A DNA stretch of 64,000 nt, taken from positions 62,001 to 126,000 of the forward strand of contig JAXGZF010000005.1 of the NCBI GenBank assembly GCA_040771865.1. Reading direction: 5' to 3'. Below are positions 19,739 through 40,294 of this stretch, piece by piece. Origin of the DNA: Desulfobacterales bacterium. GTDB lineage: Bacteria; Desulfobacterota; Desulfobacteria; Desulfobacterales; UBA2245. How positions within the stretch are numbered: position 1 is the stretch's first letter; every line of letters starts with the position of its first letter. Made by a program: the position numbers and the translations under genes. The notes below the pieces were generated by a model. That model did not search any database. It was not told the origin of the DNA and saw only the letters and a list, made by a program, of their open reading frames with translations.

Positions 19739-19813
<75 letters not shown>

Positions 19814-19821
19814 TTTTTTTT

Positions 19822-19896
19822 GGCGGCATAGCCAAGTGGTAAGGCAGCGGTCTGCAAAACCGTTATTCTCCGGTTCAAATCCGGATGCCGCCTCCA
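19822..19896 (+). tRNA. tRNA-Cys (GCA)
   Basis: GGCGGCA/TGCCGCC acceptor stem, CT-GCA-AA anticodon loop, GGTTCAAATCC T-arm, encoded CCA. Confidence 0.97.
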
Positions 19897-26964: not shown

Positions 26965-27295
26965 GGTTGCAATTTAAAATATCAAAGGATTGTATAATTC
27001 GGAACCGGTAATTTTCCTGGGCTTGTTGGCGAAGCGCTTTCCCTATTTAAACACCATGATTTCGATCCCTGTCTTTTCAGCCTGTAAATATTACAACAAT
27101 AATACCGTGGGTATGGGGTGTCAAACTTTCGCTCCCCATCGCTGAGAGCTTTCTCTGGGAACATTGAAAGGACAACAGGTCGCGATTTGTCTGCTTCCCG
27201 GCGCGAAAGCAGGTCAGTTCGTGTGTTGCTGTGAATTCGCCTGAAATTTTTAAACAGATTCCGCTTTCGGTTAAAATAATCCATCTTAATAAATG

Positions 27296-27331
27296 AATAT
27301 CATTATAATTGATATAATGATATTTATTATT
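27296..27331. promoter_or_regulatory. AT-rich inverted repeat / Fur-box-like operator
   Basis: AATATCATTATA-N5-TATAATGATATT perfect 12-bp inverted repeat; TATAATGATATTTATTATT matches 15/19 of the classical Fur box. Confidence 0.4.
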
Positions 27332-27398
27332 TGACTTTCATGTAAATTTAGTGTTTCTTATTAAAATCAAAGCAAAAAATCAAAGGAGGAGGTCTGCT

Positions 27399-27827: not shown

Positions 27828-28028
27828 TCGAATGACGTCGCCGATTGAATTTTTTTAATCCGGTTGTATCATCATAGTTGTCGCATGCGAGTTCTGATGA
27901 CCGGGGTCGAATCAGGGGTGTTTCAAAATTCGCCGATTGTAGAAAGCAATGTATTATTTGTTCATTGAAGACCGTCATGAGACTGATTTGTTCGAATGAA
28001 TCGTTGAGCAGCAGGAAAGGGGTGCGAT

Positions 28029-28466
28029 ATGGCCGATGGTTATGCCTGCCCGATGCTTCCCTCGGAGACGATTTCGGAATACAGGGAAATTTTTCAAACA
28101 GTCGAAGATGGAATTGAATATGTGCTGGAAATGTTTCCGATGCTTTTCAGAAGTGCGCTGTCTGAAATTCGGGGAAAATTTTCCAAAAAGGAAGTGATGG
28201 TGATTATCCGCGTGATGAGCGGATTGATTCTTTCTCCCCAGTTGGCTGGCCAGTATATCATCGGCAATGTGCTTGACCGAATTGCCCGGGAGGATTTGGT
28301 TGCGTCGGATGGGATCGAAAAAAGCGGGTTTTTGGAGAAATTGCGAACGCTTAATATCTTTCAGAGAGCATGCCTGGAGATATGGGCCAACAGCTACTGG
28401 TATCACGGCGGAAAACCCTACGAGGACAGCGACGCCTTGAATAGATATATGGAGACGCTGATATAG
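28029..28466 (+). CDS. Hypothetical protein, 145 aa
   Basis: Clean ORF with a purine-rich RBS (AAAGGGGTG); no motif recognised. Confidence 0.7.
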   Translation: MADGYACPMLPSETISEYREIFQTVEDGIEYVLEMFPMLFRSALSEIRGKFSKKEVMVIIRVMSGLILSPQLAGQYIIGNVLDRIAREDLVASDGIEKSGFLEKLRTLNIFQRACLEIWANSYWYHGGKPYEDSDALNRYMETLI

Positions 28467-28611
28467 GGAGCGTCACGTACATCCTATATTCTCTGTGTCA
28501 TGAAATTTTTATAAAACAAAAAAGAATTTAAATTCAATAAGATATAAATTGACGCAATTTTTGAGTGCACCTGTTTTGTTGTTTTCTGGCGACGATTCGA
28601 CTCGTCTCTCT

Positions 28612-28650
28612 AAAAAAAATCCCACGCCGGATCGTAAGTTTATCCGGCAT
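28612..28650 (-). terminator. Intrinsic terminator, minus strand
   Basis: AUGCCGGAU/AUCCGGCGU stem, then GGGA and U8. Confidence 0.65.
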
Positions 28651-28845
28651 ACTCCCTGGTTGGTAGCGGAATCGCCCATCATCCCTTATCCTGGCTGCAA
28701 GGTTCAACAGGAGGCCCGGATGTTGTCCGCCGAGGTCTCTGATGCCTCAAGGTACATCCTCGGGCTCTTTTATCGAAACTGCAATTGCTCTACTGAACCC
28801 CGGTGCCCTGACTGCATGACTTCTGTCGCTCCGTTGCGGACTCTA
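28612..28845 (-). ncRNA. Candidate structured orphan ncRNA, family unassigned
   Basis: Nested helices with G-U pairs that form only on the minus strand; ends in a stem plus U8; no long minus-strand ORF. Confidence 0.5.
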
Positions 28846-29057
28846 TCACACTAAATAACAGCAAAATCGATCGTCTGTTCCATCCGAGTCAGTTGAACCA
28901 TGCGCTGGCAAAATCAAAAAAGGTTCATAAATCATAGCCGGCCGTTTCGCCGAGAAGTGCCGTTTGTTCAGGAATCTGCTTGAAGAAATTTGCCAGCCGT
29001 GTCATAAAAATTCCTTATTATTTTTTATCGTTCCGGGAGATTTCAGGGGAGGAAGGG

Positions 29058-29606
29058 GTGAACCAGACGGCCTTGGTTGTGGGCGGGTGCAGAAGCGGAA
29101 AAAGCAGATACGCCCTTGAGCTGGCGGAGCGCAGGTTCGGAGCAAGGAAGATCTTCATGGCGACCTGTGTTCCTGCGGACGGCGAGATGCGCTGCCGGGT
29201 AGAGCGGCATCAGGCAGAGCGGGGGCCTTCCTGGACCACGGTGGAATCTCCGTTTCGGCTATCCGAGGATCTGCTTTATCACAGTGAAAGGGCCGACGGG
29301 ATTATCGTGGATTGTCTGACGCTCTGGGTGAGCAATCTGATGATGGAAGGCCTGGAACTGGACGACGTTGCCCGCCGTGTTCAGACATTGACCGATGCGC
29401 TTGAGCGGGCAAGATGTCCGGTGGTGCTGGTGTCCAATGAGGTGGGAACCGGTATTGTTCCGGAAAACGCCTTGGCCAGATGCTTTCGGGATGCAGCGGG
29501 ATTTGCCAACCAGCAGGTGGCCCGGTGCGCGGACACCGTGGTGTGGATGGTGGCGGGAATTCCGGTGACGGTTAAACAACCTTCGGGCTTGGGAACAAAT
29601 CCATGA
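29058..29606 (+). CDS. cobU: Adenosylcobinamide kinase / adenosylcobinamide-phosphate guanylyltransferase
   Basis: GGCRSGKS, RHQAER, VDCLTLW, SNEVG.G; GTG start 29058. Confidence 0.93.
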   Translation: MNQTALVVGGCRSGKSRYALELAERRFGARKIFMATCVPADGEMRCRVERHQAERGPSWTTVESPFRLSEDLLYHSERADGIIVDCLTLWVSNLMMEGLELDDVARRVQTLTDALERARCPVVLVSNEVGTGIVPENALARCFRDAAGFANQQVARCADTVVWMVAGIPVTVKQPSGLGTNP

Positions 29607-33550: not shown

Positions 33551-34153
33551 GTGCAGATGCGGGAGCAAGGAGACACAACTGAAAAGGTGATCAAGTGTTT
33601 GTGTGATTCGGTGCGGGAGGTCCTTAAAATCACCACCGCTTCGCAGATCGAGATTTCCCCTATGCTGCAAAGAATCAGCACCGTATCCCTAAGGCCCGAT
33701 ATCGGATGCTTTGTGCAGTTCGGAGGGGATTTTTCAGGTCTGGTGGTGATGAATTTTTCCGGAGCGGCGGGTCTGGAGATCTATCAGCGTTATATGAAAA
33801 ACATGGGAATGCCCGAGGAAGAGCTTGCCGGCCAGCATACCGCCGATGCGGTTGCCGACAGTCTCGGAGAGCTGATCAATCAGATCATCGGCCGATTCCG
33901 CGTGCTGATGGAAAAGCACTATCGGGTTGGCGTTCAGCACAATCAGCCCAAGGCCGTTACGATCTCCGATCGAATCGTGATCTCCATTGCCGCGGCAATT
34001 TTTCAGCCGCAGAATCTGCGCGTATCTTGCAGGACGCAGGACCAGAACCGGTTCAACATGGAGATCTCCATGGAAAAGATTGAATTTTACCCCATGGACG
34101 GGTTTGAAGCGAATCATTCCCAGGATACAGAGAAACTGTTGTCCGGGCTTTAA
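33551..34153 (+). CDS. DUF3334 / CheX-like phosphatase-fold protein
   Basis: PDIGCFVQF.GDFSGLVVMNF and D.LGELINQIIG (ExxN phosphatase motif). Confidence 0.7.
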   Translation: MQMREQGDTTEKVIKCLCDSVREVLKITTASQIEISPMLQRISTVSLRPDIGCFVQFGGDFSGLVVMNFSGAAGLEIYQRYMKNMGMPEEELAGQHTADAVADSLGELINQIIGRFRVLMEKHYRVGVQHNQPKAVTISDRIVISIAAAIFQPQNLRVSCRTQDQNRFNMEISMEKIEFYPMDGFEANHSQDTEKLLSGL

Positions 34154-36255: not shown

Positions 36256-36337
36256 CCGAAGGCTTCCATTTTCAGACTGTCTGCGGAATATCTTGACGGA
36301 AAGGATGAACTTTTCCAAATAAAAAAAGTCACTTGCA

Positions 36338-36506
36338 GAATCGTTTGGCCCCTTCGGGGATAACAGGGAAACCGGTGCGATTCCGGTACGGACCCGCCGC
36401 TGTAATCGGGGACGAAATCCGCACAAGGCCACTGGTTCTTTTAAGAGGATCGGGAAGGCGCGGAGACTAGACAGATCCGAGAGTCAGAAGACCTGCCATA
36501 CGGTTT
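36338..36506 (+). promoter_or_regulatory. Cobalamin (AdoCbl) riboswitch 1
   Basis: AACAGGGAAACCGGTGCGATTCCGG, CCCGCCGCTGT, GCCACTG, GGGAAGG and B12 box AGTCAGAAGACCTGCC. Confidence 0.95.
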
Positions 36507-36523
36507 GGCTTTGTGGAGACGGC

Positions 36524-39868: not shown

Positions 39869-39995
39869 GTTGCCCGGAAAGTGCCGTTGATTGGATTCAG
39901 GCATCTGGAAAGCAGGCTTATCGTTTTGCAGACAGGTCCGCACAACAAAAAAAATGGTTGACTTTGAAATGGTTTTTTTTTAAGGGTGATTTTCA

Positions 39996-40157
39996 CTCAG
40001 GTGCTCAATGGATTGAGCTCAAAAGGGAACCCCGTGTGATTCGGGGATGGGCCCGCCGCTGTGATCGGGGACGAAATCCGCAGAAAGCCACTGGTTCGAT
40101 TTGAATCGGGAAGGCGCGGAAAATAGAATGATCCGAAAGTCAGAAGACCTGCCTGAG
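39996..40157 (+). promoter_or_regulatory. Cobalamin (AdoCbl) riboswitch 2
   Basis: CTCAGGTG...AAAAGGGAACCCCGTGTGATTCGGGG, CCCGCCGCTGT, GCCACTG, GGGAAGG, AGTCAGAAGACCTGCCTGAG. Confidence 0.95.
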
Positions 40158-40225
40158 GGAAGAAGCCGTTGCCTCCGAGGAACAGAGGCGTTTGGCGTGT
40201 AAGATCTTGAGGATAAAAAAGGGAC

Positions 40226-40265: not shown

Positions 40266-40294
40266 GCCCGGTGGAAGCTGCCTGCAAGGAGGAC

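Follow-up and report, generated by a model that had tools for sequence, protein, structure and literature searches.

A structured RNA beside the cob operon of a Desulfobacterales bacterium reads as a degenerate bridge-RNA homologue in the right end of an IS110-family element

The question raised by this locus is what kind of structured RNA lies on the minus strand of an intergenic region adjoining a cob operon, within the window (the whole stretch of 64,000 nucleotides that was analysed). A first-pass annotation had placed there, at 28845-28612, a stand-alone small RNA of unknown family flanked by two genes of the opposite strand. Both neighbours are indeed on the plus strand:

28029-28466, plus strand: 145-aa ORF, conserved with the sister species
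start near 29056, inside the ORF 28980-29606, plus strand: cobU (Pfam CobU, E 1e-56)

All the pairings that had been listed were found in the minus-strand letters of 28845-28612. They comprise a 10-bp helix between GGUUCAGUAG (28799-28790) and CUGUUGAACC (28710-28701), a GGAUGU/ACAUCC extension, a GAGG/CCUC hairpin, a UCCG-CAA-CGGA hairpin at 28840-28830 and a GCCGGAU/AUCCGGC stem followed by U8 at 28619-28612, and most of them are contained in the minimum-energy fold of this strand. That fold reached -82.0 kcal/mol (z -1.96) and was at least equalled by 7 of 200 shuffles, versus 70 of 200 for the plus strand (z -0.37); the asymmetry between the strands is thus genuine, yet modest. The comparison with Rfam 15 yielded no family at the gathering score over the region and, at E<=10, only a chance match (Rota_CRE, E 3); the description of a structured-RNA gene on the minus strand, matching nothing in Rfam, was borne out. 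Consensus scans of the minus strand located a terminator-like site at 28638-28621 and no promoter match less than 200 nt upstream of 28845-28612, the sole sigma-70-like match being found about 200 nt upstream, at 29046-29017, with a frequency no higher than in shuffles.

Several other features of the locus were recorded. A small protein gene ended by the terminator was considered and discarded, there being no minus-strand ORF of at least 30 aa that ends upstream of the U8 within 28620-29000. On the minus strand, visual reading of the stretch from cobU to the repeats described below showed a 26-codon ORF (29005-28925) with AAGGA about 8 nt upstream, which may be due to chance. Metatranscriptome contigs, from 1 of 13 runs and with strand and ends unreadable, cover 28013-28397 and 28466-28620, and nothing within 28621-29400; the second of them, 155 nt long with 2 differences, extends exactly from the stop of the 145-aa gene to the A/T-run. 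Elsewhere in the window, Rfam 15 identified cobalamin riboswitches at 36329-36514 and 39982-40170 on the plus strand (115.9 and 122.9 bits, respectively), the latter preceding an ORF that starts at 40271 and resembles a TonB-dependent receptor, as well as two adjacent plus-strand tRNA genes at 19739-19810 and 19822-19893 (71.9 and 69.2 bits).

When a longer query was submitted to BLAST, the intergenic region split into four pieces. Two of them, 28380-28465 and 28963-29080, are syntenic with contig C20 of a sister species of the same genus (G001), and the remaining two are repeats:

28479-28782, minus strand: solo right-end (RE) copy, from just past the expected transposase stop to the element terminus (BLAST, nhmmer)
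28786-28960, minus strand: separate repeat of 175 nt, with 73% identity to one place only, G001:C24

A second copy of the former, shorter and 84-85% identical by BLAST, is present in the bacterium's own genome (G000:C7), and four matches to the region were found in the sister species. The alignments of 28479-28782 with G001:C10, G001:C16 and G000:C7 (78-85% identity) all end at base 28479, and conservation between copies continues through the U-run up to this terminus. The copies in the window, in G000:C7 and in contigs C10, C16, C14 and C32 of G001 have an exact right terminus in common and differ in their transposase-side cut points, which lie inside loop 1 or at the start of the RNA, among the last 30 codons, or at 330 codons, or leave only the last 72 nt.

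The 175-nt repeat abuts the right-end copy in the window and is no part of the RNA derived from the insertion sequence. It holds the 5' hairpin (28830-28840) as well as the 5' strand of the 10-bp helix (28790-28799), which means that the 5' third (about 60 nt) of the RNA as first drawn belongs to another repeat, and that the boundaries 28845-28612 have to be replaced by those of the conserved RNA, 28594-28779. The 5' hairpin is not conserved in the only homologue of this segment, at G001:C24. At that place, the homologue has as its neighbour a transposase-like ORF that is unrelated and in fragments. The intergenic region of the sister species that is syntenic with the present one consists of 568 nt of unrelated sequence, and the element is absent from it; as this is no empty site, the exact boundaries of the insertion cannot be read from it.

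The nature of the 28479-28782 repeat became apparent from its surroundings in other genomes. In G001:C10, it lies directly 3' of a 330-aa ORF that matches Pfam Transposase_20 (E 8.5e-18) as well as the C-terminal half of DEDD_Tnp_IS110. Relatives of this transposase were collected by scanning one genome per species, and the best 80 of 102 stretches, which share 46-65% identity and come mostly from Desulfobacterota-type MAGs, were used. Most of the ORFs extend some 110 codons further upstream than the one in G001; the three full-length relatives that were scanned have both Pfam domains complete, and one full-length relative compared with NCBIfam scored 183.7 bits, above the cut-off of 140, with NF033542, "IS110 family RNA-guided transposase". 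The 3' flanks were then taken from those loci where the match extended to the C-terminus and the flank was no shorter than 150 nt (n=74). With nhmmer, window positions 28783..28480 aligned to all 74 flanks, the homologous sequence starting 6 to 312 nt past the transposase stop, mostly within about 35 nt, and in most of them the alignment terminates at the same point as the window copy. The homology makes 28479-28782 a copy of the right end, which is non-coding, of an IS1111-like insertion sequence of the IS110 family, and what had been taken for a stand-alone small RNA of unknown family is replaced by a right end with its bridge RNA, found in 74/74 of the transposase 3' flanks.

The ends of the element were defined from copies within single genomes. 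The left end starts (A)C-GT-TATATATTGAAAT, left ends reading (A)C-GT-TATATA, and the right end closes TTGACA-N13-GGAT-GT, after which comes host CC(C), the opening of the right flank in nearly all elements. Among 58 distinct right ends, 51 have TTGACN exactly 17 nt before the end of GT, and in 49 of 51 distinct left ends GT is followed by TATATA; given these positions, ends abutted on a shared GT would give TTGACA-N17-TATATA. A junction promoter produced by abutted ends is known for IS110/IS1111 elements from sections of two published accounts (PMC11187229, PMC12288879). The corresponding positions in the window are the following:

28479-28480, minus strand: GT, putative recombination core, where homology to all other copies stops
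28496-28501, minus strand: degenerate -35 box ATGACA (family TTGACA), lying 17 nt before the GT core ends

In one element (L033) the left non-coding end measures about 136 nt and the right one about 309 nt, and the RNA occupies the right end in all 74 flanks. The element is likely of the IS1111 type, an assignment based on the location of the RNA and the lengths of the ends, because the subterminal inverted repeat recognised by inspection (TATATT / AATATA) is only 6 bp long, compared with the 7-17 bp given for IS1111 elements in part of PMC11208160. In two of the related elements, a partial second RNA copy lies between the transposase stop and the main RNA (L057 3446-3586, 49.1 bits; L061 3468-3542, 18.6 bits), and several intact elements have a second right-terminus motif 40-140 nt past the first (L061 4063/4106, L062 5844/5891, L044 3891/4033). 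These extra RNA copies and termini suggest that events occurred repeatedly at one site.

The right end encodes a predicted RNA of about 185 nt, whose structure is backed by covariation. This structure was derived by hand from complementary conserved blocks in a 47-sequence MAFFT alignment (A3) covering ~185 nt from the start of the right end. When RNAalifold was run on a 414-column alignment as a whole, the consensus was poor (22 pairs), and a UUCGG/CUGAA pairing considered earlier was dropped in favour of the long-range helix P1 once compensatory changes had been seen. When the structure was tested on the same A3 alignment, with 3' partners slid by 1-3 columns and 500 shuffles as controls, 85.1% of 2178 cells were paired, compared with 31.3-47.0% in the slid controls. 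Changes on both sides were found in 32 of the 47 pairs, the covariation score was 0.315 (0.068-0.116 when slid), and on four of five measures none of the 500 shuffles of the 47 sequences reached the observed values. A covariance model of 185 positions and 47 pairs, R1, was built from this alignment. Placed on the window by R1 and the A3 structure, the RNA and its helices are:

28594-28779, minus strand: bridge-RNA / seekRNA homologue, degenerate, matched over the full length of R1
28777-28769/28604-28596, minus strand: P1, long-range closing helix
28764-28762/28717-28715, minus strand: P2, side branch, CCC/GGG
28748-28745/28735-28732, minus strand: P2 hairpin, GAGG/CCUC
28713-28706/28611-28605, minus strand: Px, CUCUC-NNN with NNN-GAGAG
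28705-28698/28624-28617, minus strand: P3, forming a rod with P4
28695-28690/28631-28626, minus strand: P4
28676-28668/28655-28646, minus strand: P5, variable hairpin beyond an internal loop

The two internal loops of this RNA provide the link to guide RNAs. Their four sides are located as follows:

28749-28761, minus strand: loop 1, 5' side, left-target guide position (family ...ACGU, window ...ACCU)
28718-28731, minus strand: loop 1, 3' side (family GGGAC; window CGGAC with a 2-nt deletion)
28677-28689, minus strand: loop 2, 5' side, AUAAGGGAUGAU, putative left-donor guide, repeating the RE terminus ..AGGATGT
28632-28645, minus strand: loop 2, 3' side, GGAUAAAC-UUACGA (family ..GUAACGA, which includes the complement of CGTTA, the start of the left end)

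The 5' side of loop 1 repeats the host DNA to the left of the element together with the GT core. Over 39 left junctions, 175 of 312 positions agreed, and none of 2000 permutations, a control that ignores the relatedness of the elements, was as high (permuted mean 126.9, sd 7.9). In the case of the L033-L035 loop and the L034 left junction, 11 of 12 letters agree. Since the flanks are host DNA of different genomes, the match is not explained by a common ancestry of these flanks, though guides are shared by related elements. On the 3' side of the same loop, the family GGGAC is the complement of GT plus the CCC to the right of the element; beyond this conserved CCC, a mutual-information scan identified no RNA columns covarying with right-flank positions.

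Regarding loop 2, its 5' side, AAGG[G/A]AUG, repeats the right terminus TAG[G/A]ATGT, and the G/A pair gave the top mutual information among the pairs of RNA columns and end columns that were scanned. The two letters agree in 50 of 50 distinct elements, an agreement that goes back to only 2 independent changes on the transposase tree (sign test p 0.5), and this concordance is suggestive, and no more, of a donor guide. The 3' side of the loop would pair with the left-end start CGTTA, as judged from its letters. One loop matching the host DNA on the left and a second apparently matching the element's own end are, on this sequence evidence, the signature of a bridge RNA or seekRNA, which in IS1111-type elements is described, in parts of the original reports, as an RNA downstream of a DEDD recombinase with target and donor loops and a dinucleotide core (Durrant et al. 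2024, PMC11208160; Siddiquee et al. 2024, PMC11187229). In the window copy, a stretch of 9 nt, AGGAUGUAC, is found both at the target-guide position (28760-28752) and at the right junction of this copy itself (28485-28477). This repeat, AGGATGTAC, spans the right terminus and 2 bases of the flank, and its recurrence could be due to chance, given the similarity between guide and end in the family, or to self-targeting.

The copy in the window has departed from its family. R1 matched it over 28594-28779 with 110.1 bits (E 1e-29), the lowest score among full-length matches, compared with 175.4 bits for the nearest relative, G001:C10, and 133.7-185.2 bits for 14 scored copies, out of more than 70, that are linked to a transposase. 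In the model alignment, 8 of its 47 pairs are non-standard, versus 2 of 47 in G001:C10; the broken pairs comprise 3 of the 9 in P1, 3 of the 8 in Px, and one each in P3 and P4. The guide letters next to the core have also changed, from ACGU to ACCU and from GGGAC to CGGAC with the 2-nt deletion. A tblastn search of 27900-29300 with 14 full-length relatives, of more than 70, revealed no transposase remnant, the best match (E 0.026) being noise, and none of the 5 genome matches to the left-end motif (allowing 2 mismatches) falls within the window. PF02371, PF01548 and the cognate protein each gave 0 matches in the bacterium's own assembly, which is 98.3% complete in 13 contigs. The window copy is, in consequence, linked to no recombinase gene and stands as a homologue without a partner.

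These changes would also be behind some of the features that had first drawn attention to the region. Among the helices originally proposed, CCC/GGG (P2) and GAGG/CCUC are features of the family, while the 10-bp helix, its extension and the terminator stem are specific to this copy. Across 52 homologues, the 10-bp outer helix was paired in 33.8% of cells, and its 5' strand lies outside the element; the GGAUGU/ACAUCC extension was paired in 29.3% and closes a guide loop that is open in the family. The terminator is represented by the following stretch:

28612-28650, minus strand: "terminator" GCCGGAU/AUCCGGC plus U8, formed from the 3' side of loop 2 and the 3' strands of P4 and P3

Hairpin and U8 are present in the window as described, but they lie inside the conserved RNA and are not a family feature. 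The stem was paired in 67.0% of cells, with its central pair formed in 3 of the 52 homologues; the window has GGGAUUUUUUUU where the family consensus is GGGUUCGC.., so that the U8 takes the place of GGGUUCGC, and the U-run is absent from most family members. Taken together, the three copy-specific features were paired in 44.0% of cells, compared with 42.9% in shuffles, 29 of 500 of which were as high. In other words, homologues exist and the family structure covaries, but the three helices first proposed do no better than shuffles. With a terminator in this copy only, no promoter within 200 nt and no element at the sister locus, the region does not present a promoter, terminator and same-locus conservation of its own.

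All these observations can be integrated by assuming that 28479-28782 is, very probably, a 5'-truncated copy of an IS1111-type IS110 element that lacks the transposase and keeps the whole right end, and that, judging from its sequence, it is most likely an inactive relic. The relic reading follows from the lack of a left end and a transposase here, the failure to detect an IS110-family transposase in the assembly, the mutated helices and guides, and the absence of the element at the sister locus. A model can be proposed for the intact relatives, in which the element would circularise and its abutted ends would form the TTGACA-N17-TATATA promoter. The RNA would be produced downstream of the transposase gene and, when folded, would form a rod with P1 as its closing helix and two internal loops. 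Loop 1 would pair with the target (...GAC-GT-CCC...) and loop 2 with the joined element ends, and the DEDD recombinase would then insert the circle at the GT core. Within this model, homology, structure, the agreement of the loop with the left flank and the two halves of the promoter come from the present analysis, and the binding of RNA to protein and the recombination chemistry would be as in the published work on IS621 and ISEc11. The outer helix and the U8 "terminator" would represent by-products of copy-specific mutations and of the neighbouring, unrelated repeat.

A different possibility is that the copy, as an orphan bridge RNA, still works: it would be transcribed and taken up in trans by a recombinase of the IS110 family encoded outside the assembly (in an unassembled IS copy, a plasmid or an incoming element), and would direct that enzyme according to the guide specificities of the copy itself. 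At 110 bits it remains recognisably folded, with most helices surviving and loops 1 and 2 largely intact. IS copies are frequently missing from draft assemblies, and a partner transposase outside the 13-contig draft is possible. The family, moreover, includes other members without an enzyme. R1 finds the RNA, in a patchy distribution, in 14 of 61 related genomes, and a cognate transposase (at least 50% identity) occurs in 8 of the 61; half of the RNA-positive genomes (7/14) are without a cognate transposase match, two of them showing decayed transposase C-termini upstream. A complete mini element of about 376 nt without a transposase was found at 874-1251 of L004 (G031:C563). It begins with the left end ACGTTATATATT, carries the bridge RNA some 66 nt later (950-1132, 173.5 bits) and closes ..TATAGGATGT, with CCCC as its flank; from this arrangement, L004 is readily interpreted as a non-autonomous derivative of natural origin, in which the two ends and the guide RNA are retained. 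In metagenomes, 5 contigs contain the left-end motif 45-75 nt before a P1 motif, 3 of them ending inside the RNA and 2 showing a P1 stub only, so that L004, from a genome, is the only complete both-ended mini element, with none among the 5 contigs. It has also been reported, in a section of PMC11187229, that a seekRNA supplied in trans supports the movement of a mini-IS construct.

The orphan copy of the window, however, has no left end and could not itself be mobilised. It has lost 3 of 9 pairs of P1 and 3 of 8 of Px, its core-adjacent guides are changed and its -35 box is mutated, and a search of its own assembly revealed no IS110-family transposase. A working orphan bridge RNA at this locus is for these reasons very unlikely. 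Much the same holds for the broader notion that right-end/guide-RNA modules behave as "guide-only" parasites that borrow a recombinase in trans and supply a target specificity of their own, with the window copy, whose target-guide stretch shares 9 nt with its right junction, active or recently so, which is best regarded as a rather unlikely proposal. The literature search made here produced no description of transposase-less bridge-RNA copies of this lineage. As a separate observation, L091 (G008:C128) contains two degenerate, inverted RNA copies about 6 kb apart (27150-27333, plus strand; 33570-33755, minus strand), each preceded by a decayed transposase C-terminus, and the pair may be a composite structure.

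It could also be envisaged that the relic has been exapted as a host small RNA spanning 28845-28612, having gained a 5' segment out of the neighbouring repeat, together with an outer helix and an intrinsic terminator (perfect stem and U8), all three of them new. The mutations of this copy happen to produce a clean hairpin with U8 as well as an outer helix of 10 bp and an extension of 6 bp, and the minus-strand fold stands at z -1.96. Against this, the three features are not kept beyond chance in the other 51 homologues, the 5' hairpin is not conserved in the only homologue of its segment, the element is missing at the sister locus, and the sole promoter match, about 200 nt upstream (29046-29017), is no commoner than in shuffles. 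Exaptation is, in view of this, highly improbable. That the region acts in cis as a regulatory leader, either a riboswitch or an attenuator, for the cob operon or a gene of the minus strand is barely credible, in spite of its adjoining cobU in a window with two genuine cobalamin riboswitches elsewhere, because it lies on the strand opposite to cobU, has no Rfam match and no real minus-strand gene downstream (a 143-aa minus-strand ORF overlaps the conserved plus-strand 145-aa gene), and the same RNA accompanies a transposase in other genomes. The first-pass annotation was right in considering the RNA unrelated to the cob operon.

The interpretation as a transposase-less right end of an IS110-family element removes a false lead, in that there is no new small-RNA family beside the cob operon. 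It is accompanied by a model, R1, of a bridge-RNA lineage missed by Rfam 15 (about 185 nt, eight helical segments, two guide loops) and common in sulfate-reducer-type genomes, which can be used to annotate "orphan structured RNAs" elsewhere. The transposase-less copies and L004 provide, in turn, natural cases for studying if the guide RNAs of RNA-guided recombinases are able to survive or spread in the absence of the enzyme.

Three known systems invite comparison with the RNA of this window. The first is ISPpu9 of Pseudomonas putida, where, according to portions of Pares-Guillen et al. 2025 (PMC12288879), a small-RNA gene normally located downstream of an IS110-family transposase also occurs alone (orphan ssr9/MITEPpu9). 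The orphan ssr9 copies described there keep both end boxes (A', B') and form circles, whereas the window copy consists of the right end only, and Ssr9 is reported in that account as not needed for transposition, in contrast to the window RNA, a guide-RNA homologue (PMC12288879). Within the IS family of the window, the both-ended mini element comparable to ssr9 was seen only in another genome, at L004.

IS621, of the IS110 group, is the second. Its core is CT, unlike the one here, which appears to be GT. Its bridge RNA has, like the present one, two internal loops, for target and donor, the donor loop of the present RNA being putative (passages of Durrant et al. 2024 and of Hiraizumi et al. 2024, PMC11208158), and in both systems the 5' side of each loop corresponds to the top strand left of the dinucleotide core and there is a junction promoter (PMC11208158, in part). 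By contrast, the IS621 RNA is located in the left end, upstream of the recombinase, while the RNA considered here is in the right end, and the target loop lies here on a side branch (P2) instead of in series with the donor loop as in IS621.

The third, the IS1111-type seekRNA of ISEc11 and ISPa11, is likened to the present RNA by description, with no demonstrated sequence relationship and no matching Rfam model. For ISEc11, seekRNA forms of 82 and 154 nt are given in sections of the two reports, compared with the ~185-nt, P1-closed RNA with a three-way junction found here (PMC11187229, PMC11208160), and the window copy differs from IS1111-type elements in being without transposase and left end. 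What the two share, as far as the relevant parts of these papers describe it, is an RNA encoded within a long right end, after the gene of a DEDD transposase, abutted ends that give a -35/-10 promoter, short RNA stretches that match the target flanks and the element ends, and site-specific insertion without target duplication (PMC11187229, PMC11208160).
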